Shown: piece after piece, positions 1-60,025 of the stretch
Position numbering within the stretch: position 1 is the stretch's first letter
Layout: each line of letters starts with the position of its first letter
Program-made: the position numbers and the translations under genes
Assembly: GCA_001599295.1 (NCBI GenBank)
Contig: BCGN01000002.1
Span: forward strand, 558,001-622,000
From: Sporopachydermia quercuum
Lineage: Eukaryota
Direction: 5' to 3'
DNA length: 64,000 bases
Notes under the pieces: model-generated
The model's database searches: none
What the model was told of the DNA's origin: nothing
The model's input: the letters and a program-made list of their open reading frames with translations, nothing else

Positions 1-513
1 TTGGACGCGTTTGTCCGATCGTTAGCAGCTTATTCAATCATATGTTATGTCTTACAAATAAAGGACAGGCATAACGGAAATATTCTTCTGGACTCGTCGG
101 GACACATTATTCATATAGATTTCGGATTTTTACTCAGTAATTCACCAGGAAGCATGGGTTTTGAAGCAGCACCGTTTAAATTAACTATGGAATATGTTGA
201 GCTTATGGGAGGAGTGGATAGTAAGCATTTTAAGATTTTTTCCCAGTTGATGAAAGATTCATTTAAAGCTCTCCGAAAAGAAGCGGAAGAGATAATCATG
301 TTAGTGGAGATGATGCAACGAGATTCAACATTACCCTGTTTTTCATTAGGTCAGAATACATCCGCACAATTAAGACAAAGGCTACAATTGCATTTAAGCG
401 AAGCAGAGGTTGATTTGTTCGTTGAGAATATACTTATTCAAAAGAGTCTTGGAAGCATCTATACTCGATTGTATGATCAATTTCAATTGCTCACACAAGG
501 AATTTATAGTTAA
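1..513 (+). CDS. PIK1: Phosphatidylinositol 4-kinase Pik1, C-terminal end (5' partial)
   Basis: PI3/4-kinase catalytic motifs QIKDRHNGNILLD and HIDFGF; C-terminus DQFQLLTQGIYS is typical of Pik1. The ORF runs off the left edge of the window. Confidence 0.93.
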   Translation: MDAFVRSLAAYSIICYVLQIKDRHNGNILLDSSGHIIHIDFGFLLSNSPGSMGFEAAPFKLTMEYVELMGGVDSKHFKIFSQLMKDSFKALRKEAEEIIMLVEMMQRDSTLPCFSLGQNTSAQLRQRLQLHLSEAEVDLFVENILIQKSLGSIYTRLYDQFQLLTQGIYS

Positions 514-20522: not shown

Positions 20523-22232
20523 GTTGATGAATAGTTTGAACGGTGAAGATGGAAACTTGTTGAAACAATAAATGTAAAGCTAGGGTTTTAGGGTTTCAGT
20601 GCTATACAAAGGTATTTCGTATGGTTACTATCCTCATTATAATAGTAAAAAGAGAAAGTAAAGATGAAAGAAGAAATCAGATGACTGGAAATAGTTTGTA
20701 AATTTAAGTGATTCAAACTGGAAATAAAGTTGTGGGAATAAAGATAAAGTTCACTGGATAAGACTTCTTTGCAGATGATTAGAGCCTGCCTGAAATGTTA
20801 ATTTGATGGGATGGGGTATGCCGAGTACAGCTCCGCTGGTTCATNAGCCTAACGGTTATGGAACCTTTTGAATGAAAGGTAGATAATATTTAAATGGCCA
20901 ATTTATTTTTCTTGCCAAAAGAATTCAGTTGAGGAGGNTTCATTATTTGTATACTGAAGGTGTATTCTTTGGTAATTTGAAGAAAAAGAATGAGAAATCA
21001 AAGGCACTCTACCTGATGGATCAGCAAATGTGAGATGGGATAATTCTGCCTATTAGAGTTTGGAAGTCAAACTCTAAGCTACGCAATGATAGCAAGTTGT
21101 GAAGCTCATCCGTACCTCACATANNTGTGGTAATCCAGCTTCTTGATAATGATAATACAATCCTGGAATGGAAAGAGAGTGATCAATATATGAGATAAAT
21201 ACACTATCAAGAAGATCTAGTTCTGAGAAACTCAACCCCTCAATTTGATAACTACTTGCATGGAGTTGTGTCAATCATGACGTTTAAATGGCTCATTGAC
21301 AAAGGTTTGAAGCTTTGGGTTTAAGGTTTACATGCTTACCTTAGGTGATCTCTGCTACTTATTGTTTCGTATCCCCCATAAAACTTTTCATTACTGAAAA
21401 GTAATATGCAACAAAATATGCATGTACAAGCAGATGGTATAAAGATATAATGCTAAGTCTGCAGGAAACCGCAATTCATGAATTTCAAACTGCCTAACGC
21501 CTAATACACCTTCTAATTCATACATTCTTGCGTACAAAACAATTTAGGTTTATCTTTTTTCTTCATTCTAACTATGAAAGATCTATAAAGATCGCGATAA
21601 GCCAGTGACATGAGATGCTGAGTAATGAGTAAGTAACAACTTTCTGCTGCTAAATGAAAATATCAATGATATTCATGTGGAGATGTTTTTCCGTTAGCTT
21701 GACGAAACCAGAGACTTAACTCAATGCTCAATGCTCATATTGTGACCCTCTTATCACTTTACCAGCAGTTACTCAATTCTCCAGACCCTAATTACACTTC
21801 CGCGGTCAAAACTTTAACCCTATGAACAATTGCTCGGGTTTTTCCAGACATCATGATTTCCCATAGAATACCATTGGAATACTGTTCATCGTTCCTTCCA
21901 TATTCAGCAAATGAACATAAAATTGCTGGTTATGGCTGGCTGAGTGTTTTTATAATTTTTTTCTTATTTGAGGAACAATGATCCTTGATCTTAGAGTAGT
22001 GAGGATCTCTTTCTCTTTCATGTGAAAATGCTGGATAACGTCATTAAATAAACGTCATAATTGTCACACATTTTGTGTCTTCAGTAACCCCCTATAAATA
22101 AGAATTCGGATATAATTCTATCTTAAGTTCTACATCTTCTCCGAATTTACAAACCATAGTACATTACTGTATTCTATGATTAATGCTACAAACCATATAC
22201 ATTTTCGACTTAAGACAGAACCAATTATTACA

Positions 22233-35269: not shown

Positions 35270-38200
35270 ATGGCGGAAGATANCGGATCTAGCGATTATG
35301 CTACCTATATTGTAGCTACCAACCCACCTATTGGATCTGCTGAGATTCTAAGAGCTCGTCTAAGAGCTATTCAGAATATGAACGATGAGATTGCTTCCTT
35401 CTTCTCAGAGATCATCGAAGCTGAAAAACGATACTCAGCCGATTTAAAAGGAATATATCGTCAATATAGCTCTATTGGTAAGAGTATTAAATCTTTCAAA
35501 GCTAGCTCAGTTGTTTTGAATCCAAATCCCAAGAATACTGACTTGAATGTTCAATTGGGGCTTGTATCTGACCTTTGGACATCGGTGATTCAAGCCTTTG
35601 AACAGGAAGTTGATACTATTGATTCATTTACTAATAAAGTAGCTGTTGAGGTTGAACAGCCCATCAGTAGAATTACTAGAAATTCCAAGACTTGGAATGA
35701 CATGAAGTTGGCTTCTAATAATGTTTCAAGTCAAGCGAAAGCTCAATTGGCCTTGGAAAATCACGAGGAGAGTAAACATTCTTTGAATCCAAGCCATTTA
35801 TTACATAAAAAGGAATCGTCGAATAAAGATGAACTAGAGAAGCTGAAGTCAGAATGGGAAGAAAATGCTCCTAATGCTTTCCAGCAATTGCAACATTATG
35901 ATGAATATAGGTTAAGTAATTTGAAAGATGCTTTGTTGCGTTATGAAACTTGCTTTGTCGATAAACATCAGGCTAATATCAGCAATTCTGAGAGAATCCT
36001 TGATACTATTTTGTCTTTTGATCCTAAAGATGAAATCAAACGTTATGCATTAGAAATGCAATCTTCCGGTGTTAACTCGATGAAAGGCTCAGCTAATGGT
36101 TCTCATCACCAAGGTCCGAAGGCTCCTGCTTCTCGTAAGAGTGGAGTAGCAAGACAACCTTCTATTTCCTCTAATATAACTACTGGAAATGAACAATGGG
36201 GCGCTAGTGGCGCAGGCTCAGTTTCTAAAGGTCCTGCTTCCCCTGCTAAGAGAAACGTCTCAATGTCTTCTAATAGACCGGAATCTGTAATGGGAGTTGG
36301 TGCTAGTGGACTTATGGCTGGTTTCACGGAAGGTTCTGCTAATGCTGCTGCTGCTCCAGGATCACCATCAAAGTCTCCTAAGAAGCTCAGAAAGAAGATT
36401 GGTACACTCTTTGGAAGAAAAGGAAGGAAGAATAAGAAAAGCAAAGGTGAAGATGCTACTTTTGCTAGTATAAATGAAAGCGCTACAAGCTTTGGCACTC
36501 ATGACACTGGTGAAACTAGTTCTGTTGCTATGGGATCTCATATAGCCGAACAGTCTTCTCTTGCTGGTGAATCATCTGTAATTGCTGAAGAACCCAACAC
36601 CAAACCCCAGTCGGAGCCTGCTAACGCTTTTATTGACGAGGCCGACGAAGCTCTTTACGTTAAGCCTGCTGCAGAACTACCCAGTACTAAGCCTGCAGAG
36701 GCAGAGAACGATCTTTCGTTTACATCTACTCCTTTGGAACCGGTTAAACCTACTGGCCAATCAGGTGAAGAAATAGCTACCTCAGGANCCAGCCATTCTG
36801 CCGGTGCTGCTACTGGTGCTGTTGTCGGCGGTGTTGCCGTTGCAGGAGCTGCTGCTGCAGGAGCAGTTGCCGCAGTGACTGCTGCCTTGGGCCATCAGCC
36901 ACCTCCACCACCACCCTCTCGAAAATCTGCTGGTACCTCTTCAGGTTCTCATATCCCATCAGCAGATGCGTTTGCGGACGTAGAAGAAGAAGAAGAAGAA
37001 GACGACGAAGACGAAGACATCGATAAACCTGAAACACAACCAGGAGTTTATGGAAATACAGCAGCTGCTGATAATACCAGNGAAGATAGCTCATCTTCTG
37101 ACGATGAAGAACCAATCTCTGCTAGGGAGATTACAAGACCTTCAACATCATCAAACAGTATTCCTGCTGTTAAGGCTCAAGAAGAACTAACAGGAGGAAC
37201 TAAAGATGATTCAGAAGCTGCAGAAGCCGAAGATGCCATTTCAAACATTGCCAACTCTTTACCGAAGACAGAGCCTCGGAGAAGAAACAGAAAAGAAGTC
37301 ACATCTTCCATGTTTGAAGGTGTCACTGTCAACCCGACTAGTATTAACTCAGGTCATGGTACACCTAGTGATCCAGCAGCAGCTTTAAGAAGCTTATCTC
37401 TAAGCTCTAATTCGCCAGTATCACCAGTAGGGGATGAACTGAATTCGCTCCGTACCATGAGTATATCATCTAGCTCACAGTTAGGCCCATCTGGTCATTT
37501 GAACCCTGCAAACGTGTTTAGACATCCTGAAATCAATATCCCAGGTTTATACGGAAGTATCATTGAGGTCGTCAATGCAGAATACGTCAATGGGGTTCAA
37601 CAGAAGGTCCAAGTCATCGGTGAAGTTGCATTCAGGTATAACAAATCAGAATCTGATGCTGAAGGTGTTGAACCGGAAGCTATCAAAATCAGGCTTGTTC
37701 CTGGAGCAGCCCAACTAGAAAAATTACTGCCTAACACTACATTTGTTAAGCCTATTATTAGAACTGCTGAAGAAGAAAAGGAAAACCCTGGTGACGAATA
37801 CACTATTTCCTTACATCCTATAACGTCAAGAACATTAGGAGCATTGAAATATATGATCACTACGACATATTCCCCAATAACAATCCATCCAGTATGGAAA
37901 TTCGAACCTCATCAAGTCAGTTTGTTGTTCACTTATAAACTATCACCAGAATTCCTTGAAGAAGTATTGGGTTTCAATCTTAACGATGAAGAAGAAGTGG
38001 CCGATTTAGTCTTGCCTGTATCTGATCTTATTGTCTCTGTAGGCATTGAAACTACCAGCGGAATTAAGAGTGTTATGAGTAAACCAACTGGATTGTATAA
38101 TAAGGCAAACTCAAGAATGTATTGGCGATTTAAAGATATCAGTCATGAAGATGTAACGTTATTGAAATATGGCACGGAAGAGAAAATCCTAGTTAGATTT

Positions 38201-38401
38201 TTACTTGATAATACTAGTCAAGAAATCACTAGTAAGGAAGACAGTAGAGGAATCCAGTTCAGATTCTCATTAGATCTCTCAAATTACTTGAATTATAATA
38301 ATGATAAAGTGTTGAAGCTTCTGTCTCTTACTAGTGATGACTGGGGACTTATTAGATCTTATAGAAAGCTTGTGAGTGGTTCATATACAGCTAGAAGTTA
38401 G
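35270..38401 (+). CDS. SYP1: Muniscin endocytic adaptor (F-BAR + proline-rich linker + mu-homology domain)
   Basis: Helical N-terminus (RARLRAIQNMNDEIASFF..EKRYS), PPPPPPSRK, muHD motifs SIIEVVNA, GEVAF, WKFEPHQ, SKPTG, LVSGSY. Confidence 0.9.
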   Translation: MAEDXGSSDYATYIVATNPPIGSAEILRARLRAIQNMNDEIASFFSEIIEAEKRYSADLKGIYRQYSSIGKSIKSFKASSVVLNPNPKNTDLNVQLGLVSDLWTSVIQAFEQEVDTIDSFTNKVAVEVEQPISRITRNSKTWNDMKLASNNVSSQAKAQLALENHEESKHSLNPSHLLHKKESSNKDELEKLKSEWEENAPNAFQQLQHYDEYRLSNLKDALLRYETCFVDKHQANISNSERILDTILSFDPKDEIKRYALEMQSSGVNSMKGSANGSHHQGPKAPASRKSGVARQPSISSNITTGNEQWGASGAGSVSKGPASPAKRNVSMSSNRPESVMGVGASGLMAGFTEGSANAAAAPGSPSKSPKKLRKKIGTLFGRKGRKNKKSKGEDATFASINESATSFGTHDTGETSSVAMGSHIAEQSSLAGESSVIAEEPNTKPQSEPANAFIDEADEALYVKPAAELPSTKPAEAENDLSFTSTPLEPVKPTGQSGEEIATSGXSHSAGAATGAVVGGVAVAGAAAAGAVAAVTAALGHQPPPPPPSRKSAGTSSGSHIPSADAFADVEEEEEEDDEDEDIDKPETQPGVYGNTAAADNTXEDSSSSDDEEPISAREITRPSTSSNSIPAVKAQEELTGGTKDDSEAAEAEDAISNIANSLPKTEPRRRNRKEVTSSMFEGVTVNPTSINSGHGTPSDPAAALRSLSLSSNSPVSPVGDELNSLRTMSISSSSQLGPSGHLNPANVFRHPEINIPGLYGSIIEVVNAEYVNGVQQKVQVIGEVAFRYNKSESDAEGVEPEAIKIRLVPGAAQLEKLLPNTTFVKPIIRTAEEEKENPGDEYTISLHPITSRTLGALKYMITTTYSPITIHPVWKFEPHQVSLLFTYKLSPEFLEEVLGFNLNDEEEVADLVLPVSDLIVSVGIETTSGIKSVMSKPTGLYNKANSRMYWRFKDISHEDVTLLKYGTEEKILVRFLLDNTSQEITSKEDSRGIQFRFSLDLSNYLNYNNDKVLKLLSLTSDDWGLIRSYRKLVSGSYTARS

Positions 38402-39202: not shown

Positions 39203-40252
39203 TCAATTCACCTCATTCGAACTACCGAGATATGCAGAGAATATTGACCTATCATCCCAAAATTCGTCTCCTGGCAATCTAAACTCATCATCATCAAATA
39301 TAGATGATGTTTGAGAACATGTGGTTAGAAATAAATGTGTAGATGTTAATTTGGCTGTAGGTGGTTGGGGCACATGCCTCAAACCAGAGGTCAATGATTT
39401 GTATAATGGTGATGCAAAGAATTTCAACAGAAAAGGCTCAGTAGATGAAGAAGGCCCATAATGTGTTTGACAGAAGGAATTGTGATAATTTATATTTCCA
39501 GCTTCTTGCTTGCTAATTTTATTCTGTTGTTGTAGCAGTTGTTGTTTCTGTAATTTGTTGTATTGCAATTCTTTTGCTACTTTCTTAATTAAATCCACTT
39601 CCCAGGTTTCACAATTTTTCAATAGATCTGATGTGTAGAAATGTGGTTTATGTTTGGTGTCTGGCTTATTCAATTGAACTCTACGCGTTCCCGTTCTCAT
39701 TTCACGAAAACTAGGAAAGGTAGCACCAGGGACCGTTGTTGACTGAATGCGATAGACATAAGAACTTGTTTCACCAGCATCATCACCAACGCCACGGAAT
39801 GCAGTTATGTCTGCAACAGCTACATCGTCTTGATCATCAACACCCCAAGAAGATATAGGATTGCCAGTGCCTGTTGTGATATCAGATCCAGAAGAAATAA
39901 CACTGCCTCTGTTTCTATTCTTTCGTCTTTTCTGTCTTCGAATATACTCGCTTATCATCTCAGCAGATTGTTCTTCTTGCCAAGCGTTGATTCTATCTGC
40001 CACAGAGGGCACCAAACTCCCAGCACGAGGATTCAAGTGAATTGGCGTGGCAATAACCTCATCAAGATCTGATAAAGAGGAAATACTTAAAGGTTCTGTA
40101 GAAACATCGTCAGTATGAGGAGAGAAAACTACCCAGTCCTCTGATGGTGTTCTCGTTATATTTCTTGCTTCTACCTCAGTAGAGACAACACCATTATCAG
40201 AATTCGAAACCGCTCGGCTCTTATATGCCGCTGCAAATTGGTTGAATGCCAT
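39203..40252 (-). CDS. Uncharacterised 349-aa low-complexity protein; candidate selective-autophagy (pexophagy) receptor of Atg30/Atg36 type
   Basis: Intact single-exon ORF with S-E-D-W-V-V-F-S-P (cryptic AIM-like) and E-P-L-S-I-S-S (Atg11-binding-like). The ORF is solid; the function is inferred. Confidence 0.55.
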   Translation of the reverse strand: MAFNQFAAAYKSRAVSNSDNGVVSTEVEARNITRTPSEDWVVFSPHTDDVSTEPLSISSLSDLDEVIATPIHLNPRAGSLVPSVADRINAWQEEQSAEMISEYIRRQKRRKNRNRGSVISSGSDITTGTGNPISSWGVDDQDDVAVADITAFRGVGDDAGETSSYVYRIQSTTVPGATFPSFREMRTGTRRVQLNKPDTKHKPHFYTSDLLKNCETWEVDLIKKVAKELQYNKLQKQQLLQQQNKISKQEAGNINYHNSFCQTHYGPSSSTEPFLLKFFASPLYKSLTSGLRHVPQPPTAKLTSTHLFLTTCSQTSSIFDDDEFRLPGDEFWDDRSIFSAYLGSSNEVN

Positions 40253-42288: not shown

Positions 42289-42925
42289 ATGAGACCTACC
42301 AATGTTGCATTGAACGCCAGTGCTGTATGTTGAAAAAATGTGGAGAGAAGAATGTAAATGATGGATGTTTTGCTAGTTAAAGGAAGGGACTTGATTCAAA
42401 TAATACGATAAGTTGAAAGGGTATATTCTGGGTCTATGTGAAATTAATGCTAGCAAAATGTCATCAGGCAAAAACCGTGGTAACAAAGAATAGGCGATAC
42501 TAGTTTCGCGATGATCTCAAGTGTCGATACAGATTTACTAACATGTTGCAGAAAAAGGGCATCCTCAAGTACGTTCCTCCTGAATTGGCTCCTCTTTGTA
42601 AGTAACACTTTGAAGAAATACGAATGGAATATCTTTTCATCAAGAATATAAGAAGAAAATCATTTTGCTAACATTCTACTAATAGTCGCTGCTGTTGCTG
42701 TTGCACTTGCTTGTAAGTAAAACCTCATATCATATATTCTCATCAACAATTGAGATTCAAGTTAACGACCCAACTATACTACGTTACCATTACAAAGTCT
42801 AACCATATAATTCAGCTGGTGTCTATTTCACTACTAAGAAGTTCAAGTATGACGAATCTTTGAGATTGTCTAGAAATCCTCACAATTCTGCTTTCGACGA
42901 ATCTTCTGGAGAAATCAAGAAGTAA
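42289..42925 (+). CDS. MIN8: NDUFA4/COXFA4-like mitochondrial microprotein, 72 aa; exons 42289-42324, 42552-42597, 42686-42712, 42816-42925
   Basis: Three canonical introns (GTATGT/GTAAGT/GTAAGT; TACTAAC/GCTAAC/TCTAAC). Product MRPTNVALNASAKKGILKYVPPELAPLFAAVAVALASGVYFTTKKFKYDESLRLSRNPHNSAFDESSGEIKK matches the pattern of S. cerevisiae YPR010C-A as I recall it (P.EL.PLF.AV.VAL.SG.YFT.KK...DE.LRL..NP). Confidence 0.88.
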
Positions 42926-43945: not shown

Positions 43946-44542
43946 ATGCTGTCAGTGTTCAAGAGAAGCTTTTCCTCAAATGCTGTGAAAAGCGATGTGG
44001 CCAAGCTCACACTTATTGGTCATCTTGGTTCTTCTTTGGAGGCCAAGAAAGCAAGCAACGGTAGAGAATACTTGAGATACTCTTTGGCTGTTCATACCGG
44101 TCGTGGTGACAAGGAGACTACTTCATGGTTCAATATTGGCGTTTTTGACGATAAGACTATTGAATATATGACTAGCTCTGTTAGAAAAGGGTATGTAATA
44201 TAGCTTGAAGTTTGATTGAGCCAATTGAACATATATTCATATATATCGGCATATAATCGCGATTATTGATAGTGTAACTAACAATTTTTTTTTTTGTTTT
44301 CTAGTGCCTTGTTATATGTTGAAGCCAATGCTTCTATTCAAGCCTATGAGGATGAATCTGGTGTTAAGAGATCCAACTTGCAACTTTTCCAACGTATGTA
44401 TAGGATAACCTAGGGAACTGCAAACTTGTCATAACAGAAGCTCACAATAACCATGTAAAAGTGAGTGNTTTACTAACAAATCATTGCAGAATCATACAGA
44501 ACTATTAGGAATGGTCCTGAAAAGACTGAAGAAAGTGCTTGA
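43946..44542 (+). CDS. RIM1: Mitochondrial ssDNA-binding protein, 128 aa; exons 43946-44190, 44305-44393, 44490-44542
   Basis: SSB OB-fold (KLTLIGHLG, YLRYSLA, TSWFNIGVF, VRKG/ALLYVEA). Two GTATGT...CTAAC...YAG introns restore a 387-nt frame. Confidence 0.93.
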
Positions 44543-44967: not shown

Positions 44968-46140
44968 TTAATCCGTAAAATCAACACTGCTTAGCTCAAA
45001 ATTCTTGAACTTGCTTGTTGATTTAATGGAGTCTTGTGAATCATCTGTCGTCCTTTCAATAGCATATGTATGGAAATGAAATTTGGCAGTAACAGAATCT
45101 GAACTCTCAGCATATTGAGAGCCAGTCTCAAGATCAAGATTAGTGATTGAATCATTATCTTTTGATATCATTTTTCTCATAGCATTTATACATTTTCTAT
45201 CAAATTTATTCTTCTTTTCTGACATATAATCAACAGAACTTCCAAGCCCAATCTTTCTTAACCATGAGGCATACATTTTCATGGAATCAGTACCCGTACC
45301 AAGGAATATGAATGTTAAAAAAGCGACAACAAAATAGATCCATCTTTCTAATAGTGGTGGTTGATCTATTTTGAAAACATAAGCAGAATACTGGTAAATC
45401 AATTTTGGAGTCCAAGGGATCATGCTTTCTCGCAGGATATATATGAAATCAATGAGAATGTATAAAGCACAAGGTCCTGTGACTAGAATGACTCCAATAC
45501 AAAAGACCATTACCCTTAGAAGTCTGGAAACATTGAAGCCAGATTCAGCACAATGCAAGAAATCCTTCAAGTTTCTTTTTCTTTTGACGACCTGAATAAC
45601 AGCTAAAACAGCATAAACAACAGCAACAATCGACCATAAAACGGGAACAATTCCAACCGTTAGTAATGCTAACCAGGTAGATGCCAAACCAATCTCACAA
45701 CCGGAATATCGTAGCACAATATATCTCACGATCATATTCAATACCGAGATAATCATTAGATAAATTGGCGTTACCAAGCAGAATAGTAGGTCTTCAATTA
45801 ATCTTCTTTTAGGAGGCTTTTCAGCAAAAGCAGAAGGATTATTCATAATTAGATATACTTGTCTCATGATAGCAGTAATGGCGCATATGATTCCTGCTGA
45901 ATATGCTACTTTGAAACGAACCATTATGTCACAATAAACGTAGCCATTCCAAGAGTTTTCTATCATATTTGCATCACCCCAAATAATGGCATCAATGAAA
46001 GTTTTCAGACACATTATCAGTGTCCAAGTGATAAGAATGATTGTTGATACATTCCTATTTATTATGTGAAAGATGAATGGAGGAATGTTGAGTATTATAG
46101 CCAGAACTGACATAGATATTAATGCTGCTTTATAATCCAT
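44968..46140 (-). CDS. STE3: a-factor pheromone receptor (7-TM GPCR)
   Basis: Seven hydrophobic segments; W.G..YCDI, RY...RYSGC, SGFNVSRLLRV, FIFLGTG.DS..MY motifs of the Ste3 family. Confidence 0.95.
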   Translation of the reverse strand: MDYKAALISMSVLAIILNIPPFIFHIINRNVSTIILITWTLIMCLKTFIDAIIWGDANMIENSWNGYVYCDIMVRFKVAYSAGIICAITAIMRQVYLIMNNPSAFAEKPPKRRLIEDLLFCLVTPIYLMIISVLNMIVRYIVLRYSGCEIGLASTWLALLTVGIVPVLWSIVAVVYAVLAVIQVVKRKRNLKDFLHCAESGFNVSRLLRVMVFCIGVILVTGPCALYILIDFIYILRESMIPWTPKLIYQYSAYVFKIDQPPLLERWIYFVVAFLTFIFLGTGTDSMKMYASWLRKIGLGSSVDYMSEKKNKFDRKCINAMRKMISKDNDSITNLDLETGSQYAESSDSVTAKFHFHTYAIERTTDDSQDSIKSTSKFKNFELSSVDFTD

Positions 46141-46353
46141 GATGAATACGATTCAACCGTTGTTATGCAAGAATTGTGAACTTGAACTTCTAAAGCCTGT
46201 TAATCGTTGAGTATACAGTTTCCAGTAAAGCCTTTCGTTTATGTTGACAGGACTTTCTAGGTGCATCTCTTTTTCGTAACCAAGCTGATGCACATCATAA
46301 GACACAGAGGCATTCATTTTAACAGGATTTGCTATGCTTTTTATCACCCCAAG

Positions 46354-46378
46354 TTCATTGACATTCCAATTACATTTG
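46354..46378. promoter_or_regulatory. Possible MATalpha1-Mcm1 (QP'-like) site upstream of STE3
   Basis: TTCATTGA-CATTCCAATTACA has the same CATTG-to-AATTA spacing as my recollection of the S. cerevisiae STE3 site (GTCATTGT-GACACTAATTAGG), but the distal GG is missing. Confidence 0.35.
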
Positions 46379-47158
46379 ATTGCAACTAATCATCTTCAAT
46401 TCTATCATTTACAACATGAAATATATTTAGTCAAGAGACTTCTAACTACTATTCTCGATCCAGTAAAAAAAATTCCCTTTTTAAGCGAGAATAAAGTTTA
46501 AGTTTCACAACTTTAAATTTAAATTAGACTCCGGAACGGTAAGAACTAGTAGCTCTTCTTAGTGNTGGGTCGAAAATGAACCGGGAAAGCTGATAATAAA
46601 AAACATGCTTGAAGCGGCTAGCTAGCTATTATATACTTGTTAATTTGTCATAAATTGTACTCTATGATGTTCGAAAGTGGACTTATAAGATCTATATTCA
46701 CTTCTGTTGAATCTCATCGAGTTTTCACACATTAAAGTTGGGGATGTTGTATGAATGCGGAAGGGGAAATAAAAATTACCGAATACAGATTTAAGTTCAA
46801 AAATGATAAACTTAAAAGTGGTCCTGCCAGAGGTGATACTTTTTGAAACCAGTCGCTAAATGGAGATCTTTTATTAATGATCCTCAATGGATGGTGTACT
46901 ATCAATCTAAATAAGTTTATTAGATAGAATTGAGAGTAGTGCTTGTATGAGGTAATCCTGAAAACCGTTTGATACAAACCAATGTTTTCGAGTCATGTAG
47001 TTGACATATGGCTCGAACACCACTTACTAGTGCTTTTGATCTTTTTAAAGGTGAATACATACTTCTTTTTCTTATCCAAACGATAAATAAAAAGCTTTTC
47101 GTTCAGAATTTTTATCTGTTTGTTTTACATAATCTTCAATGAGATGTTATAGANGTAT

Positions 47159-47661
47159 TCAAACAATGTATACTGAGACTGTGGAGTACTTTATTGCTAA
47201 GAGCAAGAAGCTTCCGAGAAGACAGTACACTATCAAGATGAATAATGAATAACCATTAAATCTCATCAACCTTTTTGTAGTTCTATCATGTGAAGTTTCA
47301 ACAGGACAAGTTTCTATGTTATTACTTTCTTCAGCAGGGTCTAGCAGACAGTCTGATGAACAGCATGATATAAGACCATAGAAGAGGAAGACCAGTGAAA
47401 AGATATACAGACCAATAAATGTTAAACTAAGGAGAGTGAACACCTAATTATTTTTGTTAGAATAATCAAACCACATTCAAAAATTAATGCTATTTCCAAT
47501 ACAGAACTACTCACTACTGGTTTTGTAAAGAAATCAATGACTCTACAACGTCCGCAATCGCATTTATGACTCTCCAGCTCATAGCCTTCATAATCACAGT
47601 CGAAGGCATGTGGTGAAGAAATAACAAACTCTTCAAAAGAGCTTTTAGTGTCGTATTCCAT
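47159..47661 (-). CDS. ASG7: Asg7-like a-specific regulator of Ste3/Ste4 signalling, 143 aa; exons 47661-47515, 47443-47159
   Basis: A 71-nt intron GTGAGT(47514)...TTCTAAC...TAG(47444) fuses two 'overlapping' ORFs in phase 0. The product has a CxCxxC motif (CDCGRC), a TM, and C-terminal SHD..K....N..SL..LI...L..F.LL..K.S, all like Asg7 as I recall it. Confidence 0.8.
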
Positions 47662-47972
47662 TCTATGGTGACTGTCTTTTGTTTGTTTCCCAGATAGATT
47701 TATAAGAATAAAGGGATTCCTGATTTGGTCGCTTGAAGTATTTCTGGATTGACCTGCCTTCTTTCTCTACAACATGACTGGGTTCCTGAATGTTTTGATT
47801 GGACAAAAGCTATGCAATACTATAATTTCTACAGTAATATTTACAAAAGAACACTGAATTTGTATTTCAATTATTGACAAAATTCAATCGTTTAAATACC
47901 CTTATTCGCCAACAATCTTTTATTCACCATATAGATAAAGCGGTACCCAATTTGATGCCAGTTGATCAATTG

Positions 47973-47996
47973 TTACCCTTTTCGGTCAGAACAATG
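47973..47996 (-). promoter_or_regulatory. MATa2-Mcm1 composite site upstream of the ASG7-like gene
   Basis: Minus strand reads CATTGTT-CTGA-CCGAAAAGGG-TAA: HMG/a2 heptamer CATTGTT next to a CC(N6)GG Mcm1 box, 312-335 bp upstream of the ATG. Confidence 0.65.
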
Positions 47997-48888: not shown

Positions 48889-50210
48889 ATAATTGGAAAG
48901 TATGAGGCAATTTTTGCTTAACTTTTTCTTTCTTTTCAGATGTAATGTTTTGCTAGGTGGCGGAACCATTTGAAAAGTTTTAGAGGAAGTTTTAGAGGAA
49001 GTTTCATCAAGATCTGGAAATATGCACTATACGTTTTGGCAAAACAGTGATTTGGGTTATATTGAATCAATGATTCGTTCAAAGTTGATCCTGAATGTGA
49101 AGTAAATATGACTGTTATCATTTATTTTTAGTTTGAACGATATCACCTACGTAAAATTTTGATCTAGCNCCTACAATTACTCGCCAGGGTATCCAATGAA
49201 CTCCACAGCAAATACTTCGATGTACTTATAATCCTTACACTAGTCAACTCTCTTATCAGTTTTCATTTNCGAAGCTTGATTCCATTCTAATTTATTCCGT
49301 ATCCTTTTAATTTTAATTATTTATCAAAGCCTCAAAATACCTCTTACTTATCTCTCTAAGTAATTCCCATCCACCGTTTCCAATAGTTACTTGCCGACCC
49401 AGCATCATCTCATTTCCTTCCTTGATCACTCTTAATGTTCTCTACTTCTGTCCCATGTCGTGCCCCACTGCATATCAGCACCTCCTGTCCCAAAACCCCT
49501 TACATGCGGATACCAATGACCTCCCCCTTTTCCGCACAATTCCAGCTCCACCCGACTTCTCCCGCTATTTCTTACGCTGATGTTAGGAGTCATCGACGAA
49601 GCGTGACAAACTTCATGTCAGGTGAAAAATAAGCATGTGAGTTTTTTGGGTAAAGAAGTACTAAATAACTAAAGGGCTATTTGTACCATCAGTATAAGTG
49701 TGCTAACTACTGCACCCATCAGTAACAAGCGCTTGCTATTGTTACTGTTGGATGTATTATTTGACTAAAGAGTGAGAAGACAAGTATATATAAATATATA
49801 AAAAACACTAAGGAGCCTTGATGAATTGGAATCAACGCAGTATTTAATCAGTTGATTTGCATATTTGATTAGATGAGGATACTGGATGAAAGTTTATGAG
49901 CTACCTTAACAAAATTGATTGACCCCACAAGAAAGAGAGGAGAGTATTTTCTGGAGATCTCATGAGGAGTGAATAAATGACCAAGGAAAACTGGGGTATC
50001 AATAGTATTTATTGTTAAAAGCATTTCCCTGCTAACCACTCAGTTACTAGACGATTATATTTGCATAGATTCAGATGGTTGTTATATCTACTAACCTATC
50101 TAAATCCACGAATCATCCAAAAGCATAATTTCGTATATCCAATTGAAATTCACATTCGCAGCATTGTCAGAATAAAGCCATCCAAAAGTAATCAACGCAA
50201 GCCATCAAAA

Positions 50211-51623
50211 ATGCCAGTTTATAACATCTCTCATGTTGAAAACGTGAGGATTTGCGTGGTAATGGTAGGTTTACCAGCTCGTGGTAAATCCTTAATTGCT
50301 CAAAAGATTGTAAGGTATCTTACATGGCTGTCAATCAAATCAAAATGTTTCAACGTTGGAATGTATAGAAGAACAAGCGAAGCACATCCAACTGCTGAAT
50401 TCTTTGATGCTAATAATGAAGAAGGGAAAAGAATCAGAAAGTTATCAGCTCAAATGGCTGTCACTGATATGATGAAATGGTTTAATGAAGAACAAGGTGT
50501 TGTTGGTATTCTTGATGCTACAAATTCAACTAGGGAGAGAAGAGAATGGATTCTTACTTTATGTAGAAGTTATAAAATAGAACCTATGTTTGTTGAAAGC
50601 TGGTGTACCGATAAAGATTTGATCATGCAGAATATTCTTGATGTGAAGACTTCAAGTCCTGATTATGTGGGGACCGACCCTGAAGTTGCGGTTAAAGATT
50701 TTCTTGATAGAATTGAAAAATATCGTGAGGTTTATGAAACAGTCAACGATCCTGATTTAACGTACGTGAAGATTATTAATGTTTCAGCCCAAGTTATAAT
50801 CTCAAGGATTGAAACCTATTTAGAATCAAGAATCGTTTACTTCTTGATGAATCTACATATTAAACCAAGAGCTATATGGCTATCAAGACACGGGGAGTCT
50901 ATGTTTAATTTATCAGGACAGATTGGTGGTGATGCTGATTTATCGCCTCGAGGTCGGCAATATGCCCAAATGTTACCTGCTTTGGTGAAATATTCAGTAG
51001 GAGATCGTGATCTTACAGTATGGACATCTACTTTAAAACGTACTCAACAAACTGCAAGTCTTTTATCTTATCCAAAACTTCAGTGGAAAGCTTTAGATGA
51101 ATTAGATGCTGGTGCATGTGATGGAATGACCTATGAGGAGATTGAAAGCATTTACCCTGAAGATTTCAAAGCTCGTGATGCCGATAAATATGAATATCGT
51201 TATAGAGGAGGTGAATCATATCGTGATGTTGTTATCCGTTTGGAACCTATTATTATGGAACTAGAAAGACAAGAAAACATTTTGATTGTTACTCATCAAG
51301 CCGTTTTACGTTGTATTTACGCTTACTTTATGAATGTTCCTCAAGATCAATCTCCTTGGATGGATGTTCCTTTGCATACTCTCATTAAGCTTGAACCAAG
51401 AGCTTATCATACTGTTGTCACTCGCATTAAGGCCAATATCCCTGCTGTGAGTACCTATAGAGAGAAAGGTAAAAGCGTGTTAGGGAATTCAAATCCTGGT
51501 ACTCCTGTTGCTGGTCAGCCTATTATAACTCTGGGTGAAGATAGTACTGGCAGAACATTACCTCAAATGTCTCAAGGTATTGAAGGCTGTACCGTTAGTA
51601 CAACTATTGTCAAAACAGTATAA
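50211..51623 (+). CDS. FBP26: Fructose-2,6-bisphosphatase / 6-phosphofructo-2-kinase, 470 aa
   Basis: VMVGLPARGKS, DATNST.ERR, RHGES, ELDAG, YRGGESY, THQAV. The likely start is AAAAATG at 50211, not the TTG at 50061. Confidence 0.93.
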   Translation: MPVYNISHVENVRICVVMVGLPARGKSLIAQKIVRYLTWLSIKSKCFNVGMYRRTSEAHPTAEFFDANNEEGKRIRKLSAQMAVTDMMKWFNEEQGVVGILDATNSTRERREWILTLCRSYKIEPMFVESWCTDKDLIMQNILDVKTSSPDYVGTDPEVAVKDFLDRIEKYREVYETVNDPDLTYVKIINVSAQVIISRIETYLESRIVYFLMNLHIKPRAIWLSRHGESMFNLSGQIGGDADLSPRGRQYAQMLPALVKYSVGDRDLTVWTSTLKRTQQTASLLSYPKLQWKALDELDAGACDGMTYEEIESIYPEDFKARDADKYEYRYRGGESYRDVVIRLEPIIMELERQENILIVTHQAVLRCIYAYFMNVPQDQSPWMDVPLHTLIKLEPRAYHTVVTRIKANIPAVSTYREKGKSVLGNSNPGTPVAGQPIITLGEDSTGRTLPQMSQGIEGCTVSTTIVKTV

Positions 51624-53002: not shown

Positions 53003-55810
53003 TTATTCGTTTGTTCCTTCACTTTCACTTTCTTCATCTTCACTGTCACTGCCATCGACATTGTCATAAAACTCATCTTCCGCTTCATCTTTTCCTTCAG
53101 AAACATCTTTCACACCCACAAGACCCCATGAAATCTTAGTGACCTCTTGCAACCTATCAAGAATCTGTCCCATAGGTGTGAATAGGCCAAACTGTTTCTG
53201 TTCACCATCATATGAATGTAACATGCCAACAACACCTAATCCAGCTTCAGATTTCTCTTGTTGTTGCNGTTGTTGTTGCTTATCATTCACTTGTAATCTC
53301 TCAAATATCGTACCTAAATACCCTGAACCGCTTCCTTTTGATGATCCACTCATAGAGTTGGCTGTTCTAACAGTACTACTACTATTAGCACTACTAGTGC
53401 TATTTCCACCACTACCACTATCATCAGATAACTTACTGAGTATCCATGCCCCAGAATCTCCACCGGTAGCAAACATTGGATTGTTCCCATTAGAACTAAC
53501 AACAAATTCACTACTATGAAGCTTTCCGTTCGCCCAATAAACTATCTTTGGCCCATTGATTTGTCCAGAAGTGTACTTTGACGTACTACCATATTTAAAC
53601 ACTTTCAGACCTGATGTTGGATTCACAAGCTTTTTAACGTATAAATTGCCAAACATTAGACCAGCATCATATTCTGAGAACTCTACGTCATCACCAAGAT
53701 AGTTTCTACAGATAAGCTCACTTCTGCATTTGATTACTGCAATATCTGATATAGAACCTTTAATAACAGCTCGTTCTCCCCATACAACTTGACCAAACGA
53801 GAACATTTCCTCACCTTTTTCTTTGATAGAACCACCTGAAGATGTAGCCGAAGCTGAGACAGAAGGAAATAACGCATCAAGTTCTTCTAAAGCATTGGAA
53901 TATCCAATGAACTCTTCTGACGTTTCCTTGTATTTATTCTTCTCATTCCGAAGAACTTTCCTATACATCTTAATCAAAGCAGGAGAAGGCACAGCAACAT
54001 TAGGGTAACCAACGGAAACATCCGGAAGCACCACATGGCCACAAGTTAGAGCAAATGCCGATTTTGCATATTCTGCAAGATCCACATCGTCTTTATTAAC
54101 TTTCGGATAAACATAGCCTCCGAGAGTTCCCGATAGAGTTGTAGCGTTGATTTCGGCCAAGGACATTGACATTGGCGGCGCTTTAGAGTTTGTGGGTATT
54201 CGGAACGGAGGTTTCACGGTAATCTTCCGACGAGCCGAGCTCCCCAAGCCTGCAGAACTTGCCGAGCTTGAATCGCCTGTTCCACATAGCTTGATATAGT
54301 CCTTCTGACAACAGAAATGCACATCTGGGAACAAATCAAACAAAGAATGAACAATCTGATAATGCTCGTTTTCTGGATTGGGGAATCCAAATATAACAGT
54401 TATAACTGAAGATTCAGGCGACAGGCCTCTTATTACTGGAGCCAGAAAAGCACCATCTTGATCGGCAACCTGGGAAGAATCAAAAGCTGACGCAAGCTCA
54501 ACAACACTATGAATCACTTCGTGAGAAGGCAACTCGTCAATGCAACCAACAGCAAACGTTTTCGGCACAGGAAGCGTTCCCGAGGATCTGTTCACTAGTT
54601 CTAACTGTAAGCATAACTCATATAATGCTCTTAGCACCAAACTTCGCGATTGAACAAAACCAGCCGAATTGAGTAGATTATCGATGAAATGCAGTAAGAT
54701 TTTTATGATTCTTCGTAATGAAGCATTGTTATGAACAGTGATTGTCTTGGGTGGTAAAACTGCAAAGTTAGCACAGGAAACAGTTGACTTCACTGCTTCG
54801 GATACTTTGATAGAAGCCCGGGATAAATCCAGTACATTACATTGAATATCAGTCATCACGGTATCTAGTTTCTTTGCTAGAGCAGAAAGCTGGTTAAGAG
54901 CGTTGTTTTTAACTGCAAACAGGTTGATATTAGAATTGAGTGTAGGAGAATTACCAGCGCTTGAACAAGGGGAGATACTAGAATTTGACTGAATGGAACC
55001 TCCTGATTGACTGCAGATGCGACCTTTATCACCCTTAGGAATAGCTATTCCTGTTGAAGAGTTAATAGAACCTGTTGTAGGGAATCCTCTGGCACCAGGA
55101 ACAGCTCCANTAGCAGCAGTATTAGAAAAAGCTCCCTCGGGAAATACGAGGGTGTTCCTTAAACCAGCGGAAGCAGAGGCTCGAGCACTCCAAAGGCTTG
55201 AACCAGCGTTCCGTGGTTTCCTGGCTTTTGATGAGTTCAGTGATGCTGAATCAGAATCAGAATCTTCTTCTAGATCACCAGATTGTAGTATTACTAATGG
55301 TTTACCAATATCAGCAGCTTTCGATGATTTCTCACTTTCTTCTTCAACCTGCTGTAGTTTCATATCTTGTTGATGAGATAGTGCGCTTTTACCTGCTGTA
55401 AAGCTATTAGAACCCACAGTTGAAGGTCTAGTAGAAGTTGTCCGTTGATCACCAGCACCGGAAAACACACTGCTGGAATAAGTGTCTGGTTGACTTGAAA
55501 CAGTCGAATAAACGTCAGAAGATACTATTTTCAAAGCTTCTATAGAACCTCTAAATTTGTCTATTGAATCCTTTGACTCATTCTCCTTTAATTTATTGGT
55601 ATCTTTACCCATTTTTCCTCCTGGGGTTGAACTTGATGCTTCATTTGATGATATGACTGATTTCAGTCTTCCTTGGCTAGCAGTTCCAGTGATATTAGTC
55701 AAAGAGTTATCTTGATTTGAGGAGCTGGTTTGAGACGTTTGGGATATGGAGCTAGCATCAGAGTTCCTTCTTTTCACTCTTCTCCAGTTAATACTAGGAT
55801 AAGGTGCCAT
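53003..55810 (-). CDS. SSY5: SPS amino-acid-sensor serine endoprotease (peptidase S64)
   Basis: Ser-rich pro-domain; PFRIPT..APPMSMSL, SGTLGGY; catalytic triad TCGHV / SDIAVI / GDSGAW; GMLHSYDGE.KQFGLFTPM..IL.RL..VT.I.W. Confidence 0.92.
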   Translation of the reverse strand: MAPYPSINWRRVKRRNSDASSISQTSQTSSSNQDNSLTNITGTASQGRLKSVISSNEASSSTPGGKMGKDTNKLKENESKDSIDKFRGSIEALKIVSSDVYSTVSSQPDTYSSSVFSGAGDQRTTSTRPSTVGSNSFTAGKSALSHQQDMKLQQVEEESEKSSKAADIGKPLVILQSGDLEEDSDSDSASLNSSKARKPRNAGSSLWSARASASAGLRNTLVFPEGAFSNTAAXGAVPGARGFPTTGSINSSTGIAIPKGDKGRICSQSGGSIQSNSSISPCSSAGNSPTLNSNINLFAVKNNALNQLSALAKKLDTVMTDIQCNVLDLSRASIKVSEAVKSTVSCANFAVLPPKTITVHNNASLRRIIKILLHFIDNLLNSAGFVQSRSLVLRALYELCLQLELVNRSSGTLPVPKTFAVGCIDELPSHEVIHSVVELASAFDSSQVADQDGAFLAPVIRGLSPESSVITVIFGFPNPENEHYQIVHSLFDLFPDVHFCCQKDYIKLCGTGDSSSASSAGLGSSARRKITVKPPFRIPTNSKAPPMSMSLAEINATTLSGTLGGYVYPKVNKDDVDLAEYAKSAFALTCGHVVLPDVSVGYPNVAVPSPALIKMYRKVLRNEKNKYKETSEEFIGYSNALEELDALFPSVSASATSSGGSIKEKGEEMFSFGQVVWGERAVIKGSISDIAVIKCRSELICRNYLGDDVEFSEYDAGLMFGNLYVKKLVNPTSGLKVFKYGSTSKYTSGQINGPKIVYWANGKLHSSEFVVSSNGNNPMFATGGDSGAWILSKLSDDSGSGGNSTSSANSSSTVRTANSMSGSSKGSGSGYLGTIFERLQVNDKQQQXQQQEKSEAGLGVVGMLHSYDGEQKQFGLFTPMGQILDRLQEVTKISWGLVGVKDVSEGKDEAEDEFYDNVDGSDSEDEESESEGTNE

Positions 55811-57662: not shown

Positions 57663-59345
57663 CTATTCAAACTGAATCTCTGGTCGATTGGCCTCACTGA
57701 ATATGTTATTAGGATCAGCATCAACATCTACAACATCAACATGAGATTTCTCTGTGCCCTCCTCATGGGATTTTGATTCAATGTCAAGAGTATCCACACC
57801 ATCGTCATCAGTAGCAGAGGCAGCAGCGGCAGCAGCAACTATTGCAACTGCAGCAGTTGCAGTATCTGTTGCATTACCATAGTTTTCTCCAGTTAAAGCT
57901 AGCTGAGCTTTTTCCTCAACAGCTTTCAATGATTCTTCTTGAGCAAACAGATTAGCTTCAGTATCATCTTTTGAAATCTCGGGCTGAGTGTCCATAGGTA
58001 TAACTCCGGAAACACCCATAGGATCAATAATCAATTGTTGTCTACGAGAAACACTCAATACTCTATCGGGGAACAATTCTTTCAGCTTTTCTTCTTTAGA
58101 AACAGGAATCAAACCAGCGGCTTCAAACTCTCCAACTGGGTTAAAAGTATGGTATGATGTCAGTCTATGTTCAGCATATTTCGAGCACCAGTCTACTTCA
58201 GAAATCTCAGAAGTAGCAATGTCGATTTTACTGCTTGTTTTCTTTGGATTAATACCTCCTAAATGCTTAGCAATCTTATTTCGGATAGCTGGTATAATGT
58301 TTAGTTTCAAAGGATTCAATCGATTAGCATAACTATGTGTTGCTGGAAGAACAAATAAAATCAGCTGATTTGCTCGACAATAGTTAAGAAACTCTATTGT
58401 AGTGATAAAATCAAACCCTTCACATACTAACAGCTTGTTCTTAGTACCTTTGGATTCAAAAAGGCTTTTATTACTCTCCAAAAAGTCTATGAGATGTTTA
58501 CTAGTTACTGTCGTTTCATCATTGAAATGGACATCCAATTGGTTGTTGACACTTAGGTCTTCAGTTAATGTATCGTCAGATATTTGCTTATTGGCATTTA
58601 TGAAAATGCTTGGTTTAAGTGTCTCTCCGGCTCCACTTACACATTCAAACGCGTTTATATCAAGAAATGGTTCCCCAGAGACTGTTTCTTGCCCATCCTG
58701 TGTTCTTGAAGTAGTATATATATACTTCTGCATGTCCAATGCGAAGAATACTTCGTTGGTAATATATTCTGTATTCACGATTTTGCTTAGATATTCAAAC
58801 CAGTAATCGATTTTTTCCCTTGTTATGGAAACATTCTTAGCCATAGCACCAAAAGTTGTGTCAAGGACCAAATCGTTTTTATGCCTAGAGACAAAATGGT
58901 CAAACCAACTACCACCAATATGACAATATTTAACCGGTTCTGTAGCAGGAGTTTGTCCTTGAGAGACAAGGTTATCATAACGTGCCTTTAGTAGTTGTCG
59001 AGCTAATTTTTCAATAACCGCTTTACAAGGTAAAAGACCATTTGTAGATAATCCTTTGACATAATGCATCAATACTTCTTCTTCTTCTGGAGTAAGCTTT
59101 TGTTGAGTAGAATGAGAGTCTCTTCCATTCTTAGCTCCTTTGAACCTATTATGTAATGTTGCTCTTGGAACGCCATATTTCTGAGCAAGCTTTCTGAATG
59201 ACATTTCTCTATTAGAGCTAATGTATTCCTGTAGAGCAGCAGAGATTATAGCATCTTCACGATAATGATCTGGTTTCCATGATGTTGGTTTCTTTGATGG
59301 AGTTTTCTTTGTCTCCCGTTTCTTGACGGCGCCTGAAGTNTCCAT
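57663..59345 (-). CDS. pogo/Fot1 transposase-derived (CENP-B-like) DNA-binding protein with degenerate DDE domain
   Basis: HTH_psq-like SFRKLAQKYGVPRATLHNRFKG; Tc5-HTH KLTPEEEEVL...IGGSWFDHFVSRH; DDE-like segments ALDMQKY, ECVSGAGETLKPSIFI, KLLVCEG, LPATHS...LNPLK; acidic/Ala-rich tail. Confidence 0.8.
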   Translation of the reverse strand: MXTSGAVKKRETKKTPSKKPTSWKPDHYREDAIISAALQEYISSNREMSFRKLAQKYGVPRATLHNRFKGAKNGRDSHSTQQKLTPEEEEVLMHYVKGLSTNGLLPCKAVIEKLARQLLKARYDNLVSQGQTPATEPVKYCHIGGSWFDHFVSRHKNDLVLDTTFGAMAKNVSITREKIDYWFEYLSKIVNTEYITNEVFFALDMQKYIYTTSRTQDGQETVSGEPFLDINAFECVSGAGETLKPSIFINANKQISDDTLTEDLSVNNQLDVHFNDETTVTSKHLIDFLESNKSLFESKGTKNKLLVCEGFDFITTIEFLNYCRANQLILFVLPATHSYANRLNPLKLNIIPAIRNKIAKHLGGINPKKTSSKIDIATSEISEVDWCSKYAEHRLTSYHTFNPVGEFEAAGLIPVSKEEKLKELFPDRVLSVSRRQQLIIDPMGVSGVIPMDTQPEISKDDTEANLFAQEESLKAVEEKAQLALTGENYGNATDTATAAVAIVAAAAAASATDDDGVDTLDIESKSHEEGTEKSHVDVVDVDADPNNIFSEANRPEIQFE

Positions 59346-60025
59346 CTTTTGTAATTTACAGCTATGATTTGGTATCGACTTCTAACAATTTTTTCTTTAT
59401 CCTTATACAATTCAGTTTACCTTGCGCGTAGATGTTTTGGTTGTTTATGTTCGTAGTCTCCGTTGTTTTCTCTCTGGTCAACGTTCTGGGCGAGACTTTT
59501 TAACTGATCCCTTTAGAGTATCCAATCTTTCAATCAAACAAACAATCTAACTGATAAGTTTTTATAAACAGTTACAGATATTGAAACCAATACTAGTAAT
59601 CATCTTCAGCATATAGTATCATTATCACATAACATACAATAGGTTTCTTCATCCCATTACTGGTGTTTGTTTACACCTTTTGTTTTGTTTTGACAGTAAG
59701 AGCTTCATAGAACCTTTAGGGATCACCCGGACATGGGACGAGGAAAAGTTTGATGACGTCTTATGTGGGGTATGGTGAAGACTAGGATTCTGCATTTGAC
59801 TGAGGGGGTAATGCTAGAACCTAGAGACTTGGCCGACAACTGTGAGCTTTGGGGGAATCCGGGAGATTTGGAGGGCTGGAAATAAGGCATCATAAAACCT
59901 ATCTATTTCAGGTGTCAGAATCAATTATATAACCAGGATTAACATTTTTGAAACAATATTATATGTATATATGTATGTATGTTATTTTTCTATTAATAAT
60001 GAACCGTNTCCTCAAAATAAATACT

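Follow-up and report, generated by a model that had tools for sequence, protein, structure and literature searches.

We analyzed a 64,000-nt stretch of the genome of the yeast Sporopachydermia quercuum (GenBank assembly GCA_001599295.1, contig BCGN01000002.1, positions 558,001 to 622,000 of the forward strand), hereafter the window, numbered from its first letter. At its center of interest is a small two-exon gene upstream of STE3, which encodes the a-factor pheromone receptor. We call it the ASG7-type gene after ASG7 of Saccharomyces cerevisiae, whose product acts with Ste3 to shut off pheromone signaling after cell fusion, as described in the cited parts of two reports (PMC8108519, PMC4824985). 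The locus comprises the following features.

47976..47996, minus strand: a-specific-type operator (CATTGTT, 4 nt, CC-N6-GG), 315-335 bp upstream of the ATG
47719..47728, minus strand: another CC-N6-GG box, a putative Mcm1-like site, at 67 bp before the ATG
47515..47661, minus strand: first exon of the ASG7-type gene (49 codons); acidic, with the CxCxxC at residues 34-39
47444..47514, minus strand: predicted spliceosomal intron of 71 nt in phase 0, with GTGAGT as donor, TTCTAAC (47462-47456) as branch sequence and TAG as acceptor
47159..47443, minus strand: exon 2 of the ASG7-type gene, 94 codons and a stop; helix 1, acidic Cys-containing loop, SHD...N..SL, helix 2
46141..47158, minus strand: gap of 1,018 bp between the two genes, with the 3' region of the ASG7-type gene and the promoter of STE3; neither an a-type site nor a recognisable alpha1-Mcm1 site was found in it
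44968..46140, minus strand: STE3, a-factor pheromone receptor, 390 aa, Pfam PF02076

The two minus-strand frames of the ASG7-type gene, 47422-47661 (79 aa) and 47159-47443 (94 aa, without an internal stop), had been joined in the sequence-only reading of this DNA by an intron rather than a frameshift, and this claim is borne out. The 71-nt segment between them begins with GTGAGT, contains TTCTAAC and ends with TAG, and its removal leaves exons of 147 nt and 285 nt that encode a 143-aa protein. When 18 GT..AG pairs leaving a frame of at least 110 aa were compared, a GT[AG]AGT donor occurred in the 71-nt pair alone, and its style of donor and branch sequence is shared by further introns of the window. 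In dinucleotide shuffles of the 3.26-kb region, an open reading frame (ORF) of at least 130 aa joined by a consensus intron appeared in 0 of 1000. The frameshift reading was dropped because the consensus intron accounts for the change of frame. An altered CUG code was likewise dropped: CTG aligns to leucine at 5 of 5 positions in an RNA polymerase I subunit, and the standard genetic code therefore applies. Codon usage in exon 1 exceeds that of 35 of 36 non-coding control frames. As far as can be judged from the sequence, 47159-47661 (minus strand) is a real two-exon gene and the model is correct. That the locus is instead non-functional, two chance or decayed frames flanking a chance intron-like stretch, would fit the want of a homolog by sequence and the codon usage of exon 2, which is like that of non-coding DNA. 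We regard it as highly improbable, given that no shuffle yielded such a spliced ORF, that a regulon-type promoter site precedes the gene, and that a gene of the same layout occupies the same place in Saccharomycopsis schoenii.

The 143-aa product has CxCxxC at residues 34-39, SHD at 100-102, N at 112 and SL at 115-116, and hydropathy maxima of 2.33 (scanning window 49-67) and 2.68 (scanning window 115-133), so that translation and hydropathy both agree with the two-transmembrane protein first proposed. AlphaFold2 modeled exon 2 alone as a hairpin of two helices with a mean predicted local distance difference test score (pLDDT) of 66, for which the PDB held no match at E<=0.001 (17 weak rows). 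The predicted product is a small membrane protein whose first helix is preceded by a Cys cluster, a layout that arose in 52 of 20000 shuffles. We take CxCxxC and SHD...N..SL to be Asg7 motifs. The gene lies upstream of STE3 on the same strand across a gap of 1,018 bp, in keeping with the distance of about 1 kb given earlier, and STE3 itself matches PF02076 at E 6.5e-67 (226 bits, residues 10-290, the seven-helix region).

The same layout recurs in other yeasts. In the part of the Saccharomycopsis schoenii annotation cited here (PMC13148404), STE3 is directly preceded on its own strand, at a distance of 738 bp, by the unnamed gene sch_g325, in which exon 1 (147 nt) and exon 2 (399 nt) are separated by a phase-0 intron of 65 nt and together encode 181 aa. 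Its model is labelled GeneMark, from a pipeline that used RNA-seq, and the locus is flanked by TAL1, YFH7 and one unnamed gene on one side and by lub1 on the other (PMC13148404). The STE3 record of Pichia californica, KAG0680665.1 (P0004), is 639 aa long and begins with about 155 extra residues, which include a CxCxxC (residues 32-37) and a hydrophobic helix. A 52-aa genomic ORF (P0005) matches the first 49 of these residues and then runs Val-Ser-Gln-stop, which appears to be read-through into a GT-x-AGT donor, as at an intron. Three genomes, namely this one, S. schoenii and P. californica, therefore break after codon 49. KAG0680665.1 is more likely a joined gene model than a real ASG7-STE3 fusion; a fusion would be consistent in topology, as a single helix would precede the N-terminus of the receptor, which lies on the outside. 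In Ogataea polymorpha, OPOL_10419_ASG7 is listed as a-specific and described as 'upstream of STE3', in a table that states the position of another gene in the same manner, as 'upstream of KAR4' (PMC5720833). The expectation that automated annotation would likely miss such genes finds support: the candidate is unnamed in S. schoenii and apparently joined to STE3 in P. californica.

We take YKL178C to be STE3. In the rows cited from an ancestral gene-order table of 2009, YKL178C is Anc_1.167 and YJL170C is Anc_1.169 (PMC2675101); YJL170C is named as ASG7 elsewhere (PMC10136162). The two genes lie within a few gene numbers of each other in all six non-duplicated species of the table, with one listed gene between them in five and none in Zygosaccharomyces rouxii, where the identifiers are consecutive (PMC2675101). 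The Eremothecium gossypii names AEL131C and AEL129C would, by their naming convention, place ASG7 upstream on the same strand (PMC2675101). Among post-duplication species, Saccharomyces cerevisiae, Saccharomyces bayanus and Naumovozyma castellii hold the genes on different tracks, whereas in Vanderwaltozyma polyspora they share a track; for Candida glabrata the ASG7 row is empty (PMC2675101). The ancestral place of STE3 is reported as unmoved in every Saccharomycetaceae species examined (PMC4629796, as excerpted). Other genes of the window derive from the same ancestral segment (Anc_1.151, 1.153, 1.191 and 1.192), and the ASG7-type gene keeps its ancestral place, preceding STE3 in the same orientation. 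The linkage is thus kept in distant lineages, that is, in the Saccharomycetaceae of the table, in Ogataea, in this genome and, with candidate genes, in Pichia and Saccharomycopsis. The sequence-only reading had suggested an old clustered system in this yeast; its age stands, but the 2009 table and the Ogataea annotation show that the arrangement is not special to this yeast. The ASG7-STE3 linkage is old and widespread and already implicit in published tables. Our literature search, which left most subscription papers, including key regulon work, outside its scope, found no explicit discussion of it in the texts as available, and one Candida albicans supplement (PMC6382970) contains neither gene name.

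The promoter of the ASG7-type gene provides a further line of evidence. We take CATTGTT to be an HMG a2-type half site beside an Mcm1-type box, and a search pattern combining the 47976-47996 site with this presumed half-site was run against the genome (16.4 Mb). It gave 10 exact matches vs. 3 for a reversed control. Six of the 10 have a 4-nt spacer, two of them within coding sequence and four intergenic; the latter precede the ASG7-type gene (335 bp), a STE14-type isoprenylcysteine methyltransferase (303 bp), an M16 peptidase (372 bp) and an a-factor precursor (687 bp). For the four matches with a 3-nt spacer no tie to mating genes was made. The M16 peptidase appears to be AXL1-like, as the lower-scoring of two insulinase-like genes, and the a-factor precursor (39 aa, ending in a CAAX box; L010 718-834, minus strand, contig C5) reaches 24.3 bits against PF17317 (cut-off 25). 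STE2 has a one-mismatch copy of the operator in reverse orientation. In a matrix built from the four other sites, with that of the ASG7-type gene left out, the 47976-47996 site ranked third of 323,646 positions scored, at 13.2, after a site upstream of an ABC transporter that is STE6-like by inference (19.4) and one in a coding region (16.0). At the sequence level, then, the ASG7-type gene has an a-specific cis-regulatory site upstream that it shares with the a-factor, STE14, AXL1-like, STE2 and STE6-like promoters, and it is probably a-specific. A published list of a-specific genes in Wickerhamomyces anomalus, in the part cited, includes ASG7 and matches the operator gene set found here (10.1101/565234).

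Two alpha-factor precursor genes were also observed (L032, contig C4; L033, contig C2), which encode the same 13-residue mature peptide, one as a multi-repeat and the other as a single-copy precursor; L033 is on the contig of the window and precedes it by about 39 kb. No a-factor-like ORF was found near the locus.

The sequence-only reading had the two partners expressed in opposite mating types. The probable a-specificity of the ASG7-type gene speaks for one half of this claim; the other half is left without an alpha-type site at STE3, and the mating-type (MAT) locus holds genes of both types. Beside SLA2 on contig C3 (L044 103-8019 and L045 3414-4358, after SLA2) lie an a1-type homeobox gene, an intron-split HMG-like gene, an unassigned 374-aa ORF and an alpha2-type homeobox gene, followed by a mitochondrial carrier. 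No long repeats were seen in the three 10-kb pieces examined. The locus resembles the contiguous primary-homothallic class, in which, according to the cited section, how cells choose their state is an open matter (PMC6692504). Since a-type and alpha2-type genes adjoin in one MAT locus, 'opposite mating types' may here mean opposite transcriptional states.

Several observations weigh against the identification as ASG7 or against its a-specific control. For the gene itself, codon usage in exon 2 falls mid-range among the non-coding controls and is uninformative, and 4 of 1080 other frames of the same genome likewise have CxCxxC ahead of a hydrophobic stretch. The operator pattern was written after the 47976-47996 site had been seen, so that its own match arises by construction, and its matrix score of 13.2 falls below three of the four training sites (leave-one-out 13.0-22.4). 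No convincing alpha1-Mcm1 motif common to STE3 and the two MF-alpha promoters was found. At MAT, both halves of the a2 candidate, the intron-split HMG-like gene, lack a Pfam match, and an alpha1 gene was not found in a search run without a positive control. Regarding the other yeasts, sch_g325 was compared by its coordinates, and similarity to the P. californica piece is weak, its score being reached by 129 of 2000 shuffles for the whole piece and by 49 of 2000 for residues 1-80. The break lies 10 residues past the last Cys here and 12 in P. californica, which leaves an identical intron position unproven; the equal exon length is therefore perhaps partly coincidence.

Sequence searches gave no link to a named Asg7. 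A Pfam scan of the ASG7-type gene gave no family above the cut-off, and the sub-cut-off matches to CD20 (E 0.016) and EPF (E 0.025) were dropped as chance products of hydrophobic or Cys-rich sequence. With exon 2 as the query, none of eight word-search candidates was confirmed and phmmer returned no hit at E<=0.001 among 1.84 billion representatives; exon 2 and exon 1, searched separately, gave no usable match in the ESM Atlas. Neither did exon 2 find a relative in metagenome contigs (0 of 595 stretches confirmed), nor was a second copy found in the gene's own genome. The database searches used single exons as queries and not the spliced 143-aa protein, and STE3 itself gave a single relative among 2909 candidates (29% identity); the blanks consequently say little. 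In metagenome contigs STE3 was found at one locus from 349 stretches, and no relatives of it were found in prokaryote genomes, viral contigs or plasmids.

One metagenome contig, Ga0058698_10139019, has a hydrophobic Trp-Leu-Pro-Arg-Phe-Phe stretch (L031 231-464, plus strand) about 0.9 kb upstream of a STE3 start and on the same strand, and this STE3 start looks like that of a filamentous ascomycete. The stretch presumably resembles the first Asg7 helix. As a possible ASG7 it was set aside, since its similarity to the two candidates lacked significance (676 and 822 shuffles out of 2000). If it were real, the ASG7-STE3 linkage would extend beyond budding yeasts.

The name ASG7 consequently rests on position, gene layout and promoter, since no match to a named Asg7 sequence was obtained. 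This is where the earlier ASG7-like assignment now stands: it has gained the ancestral position, an exon 1 of the same size in S. schoenii and a shared promoter site, and it has gained no sequence similarity to Asg7. We must also consider that a real a-specific membrane protein gene, unrelated to Asg7, took over the position upstream of STE3. The missing Asg7 match and the weak similarity even to the P. californica piece would be explained in this way, as would a length of 143 aa, which is shorter than the 25.7-kDa Asg7-like protein of Kazachstania mentioned in the cited passage (PMC10136162). Such a second gene, however, would have to match the position, strand and regulon of ASG7 as well as the layout of CxCxxC before a helix, and we consider this replacement improbable. 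On balance, we put the probability that 47159-47661 (minus strand) is the ASG7 ortholog at its ancestral place upstream of STE3 at roughly 85%.

If the ASG7 assignment holds, a likely mode of action can be outlined. MATa2 and Mcm1 would switch on the ASG7-type gene together with the a-factor, STE14, AXL1-like, STE6-like and STE2 genes, and the protein would be made in cells of the a-state. On fusion of an a with an alpha cell it would meet Ste3, by analogy to S. cerevisiae; pheromone signaling would then stop at the G-beta-gamma step, and the zygote would exit the mating program.

Why the two genes lie side by side is a separate question. Linkage as a requirement for function is not borne out, for the S. 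cerevisiae genes are on different chromosomes and the system works there. The position appears to be an old inherited arrangement, and a need of it for the mechanism finds no support here. The explanation we favor, at somewhat better than even odds, is that the genes are neighbors by inherited gene order, separated by a 1-kb gap that is rarely broken and has no functional role. The presence in the window of four other genes of the same ancestral segment agrees with this, as do the different duplicated tracks in S. cerevisiae, S. bayanus and N. castellii, the third gene between the pair in five of six non-duplicated species in the table excerpt (PMC2675101), and the unmoved place of STE3 in the Saccharomycetaceae species covered by the cited text (PMC4629796). 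Against it may count that the pair persists while its flanks differ between this genome and S. schoenii.

Selection might instead keep the arrangement, either because transcription of the upstream a-specific gene, directed at the STE3 promoter, would help to keep STE3 off in a cells or through shared pheromone-response elements. Strand and order are the same in four lineages, and in O. polymorpha both genes were induced by Ste12 overexpression (log2 5.1 and 5.5), as listed in the cited data (PMC5720833). In this genome the motif search turned up no alpha-specific site of STE3's own, although a blank of this kind is weak evidence; a gene intervenes in most pre-duplication Saccharomycetaceae, and S. 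cerevisiae has separated the pair fully. Cis interference or shared elements are hence an unlikely cause of the linkage, and inherited order is more likely. A bolder form of the idea seems doubtful to us: that ASG7 and STE3 form an ancient selected two-gene unit of budding yeasts, in which upstream transcription in a cells would dampen the STE3 promoter, so that the locus would block self-signaling twice, in cis ahead of fusion and in trans once cells have fused, and which in some Pichia may have become one self-inhibited receptor, as KAG0680665.1 might suggest.

The ASG7-STE3 pair is flanked in this genome by RIM1-type and FBP26-type genes. The neighboring genes assigned to the ancestral segment are as follows.

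35270..38401, plus strand: SYP1-type muniscin, ancestral position Anc_1.151
43946..44203, plus strand: RIM1-type gene for a single-strand binding protein, Anc_1.153; the gene has two introns, and this is its first coding part
50211-51623, plus strand: FBP26-type gene, Anc_1.192
53003-55810, minus strand: SSY5-type gene, Anc_1.191

SYP1 is presumably the gene name behind the systematic identifier at Anc_1.151. Between the SYP1-type and RIM1-type genes lies a 349-aa ORF, 39203-40252 (minus strand), which belongs to no Pfam family and is, from its place and orientation, probably a diverged ortholog of YJL185C (Anc_1.152). A tiny gene at about 42460-42925 (plus strand) has at least two introns (42598-42685 and 42713-42815) and encodes a short one-helix protein, which we take to resemble NDUFA4/B12D-type respiratory subunits; its last exon, searched alone, had no Pfam match. 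Upstream of the FBP26-type gene, a 65-aa ORF is followed by a consensus 86-nt intron (49637-49722; whole span 49435-49722, plus strand), which could represent either an exon further upstream or an intron in the 5' leader. The 572-aa frame 57666-59381 (minus strand), between the SSY5-type and VPS35-type genes, has an HTH_psq and a weak Tc5 transposase DNA-binding domain and is possibly a domesticated transposase. Finally, a xanthine dehydrogenase-type gene, 16284-20579 (minus strand), is complete with all molybdopterin, FAD and Fe-S domains, and the Pfam matches confirm its presence as read earlier from the letters.

The biology of the Asg7-Ste3 system is already known in outline; what is added here is a hidden gene and a positional guide to a fast-evolving family. 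Asg7, known from work in S. cerevisiae, acts as a brake on a G-protein-coupled receptor and is poorly understood; its rapid evolution defeats sequence searches of the kind tried here. The rule that emerges is to inspect the DNA just ahead of STE3 for a gene of two exons that encodes CxCxxC and has an a-type site in its promoter. It points to candidates in three further yeasts, and annotation has left such genes unnamed, has joined them to STE3 or, as here, may miss them. An alignment of these candidates would help to find the conserved residues of Asg7, and the candidates would date the post-fusion shut-off to before the split of these lineages. Some over-long Ste3 records may also prove to be joined gene models.

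Compared with known systems, the ASG7-type gene is closest in kind to ASG7 (YJL170C) of S. cerevisiae, with which it has in common the ancestral position upstream of STE3, a predicted a-specific control and a small membrane protein product; the CxCxxC and SHD segments we assume to be shared as well. Unlike that gene, it has an intron, encodes 143 aa and adjoins STE3. Its upstream site is like those of the MATa2-Mcm1 regulon of C. albicans and W. anomalus, as far as this is described, in standing also at the STE2, STE14, AXL1-like, STE6-like and a-factor genes. It differs in that the HMG half-site used here is a presumed one and in that, in this assembly, a single locus houses MAT genes of the a type and the alpha2 type. 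The predicted control is of the a2-Mcm1 activation type, vs. alpha2-Mcm1 repression in S. cerevisiae, following the schemes in the cited part of 10.1101/565234. OPOL_10419_ASG7 of O. polymorpha is likewise a-specific and 'upstream of STE3', a phrase that could also mean upstream in the pathway. In P. californica, residues 1 to about 155 of KAG0680665.1 form one 639-aa protein with STE3 and lack the second helix, but they have CxCxxC and then a helix, a break after codon 49 and a place ahead of STE3. Last, sch_g325 of S. schoenii, which in the cited annotation has no assigned name or function, differs in length (181 vs. 143 aa) and in its 738-bp gap, and agrees with the gene described here in lying directly upstream of STE3 on the same strand, with two exons, a 147-nt exon 1 and a short phase-0 intron (PMC13148404).

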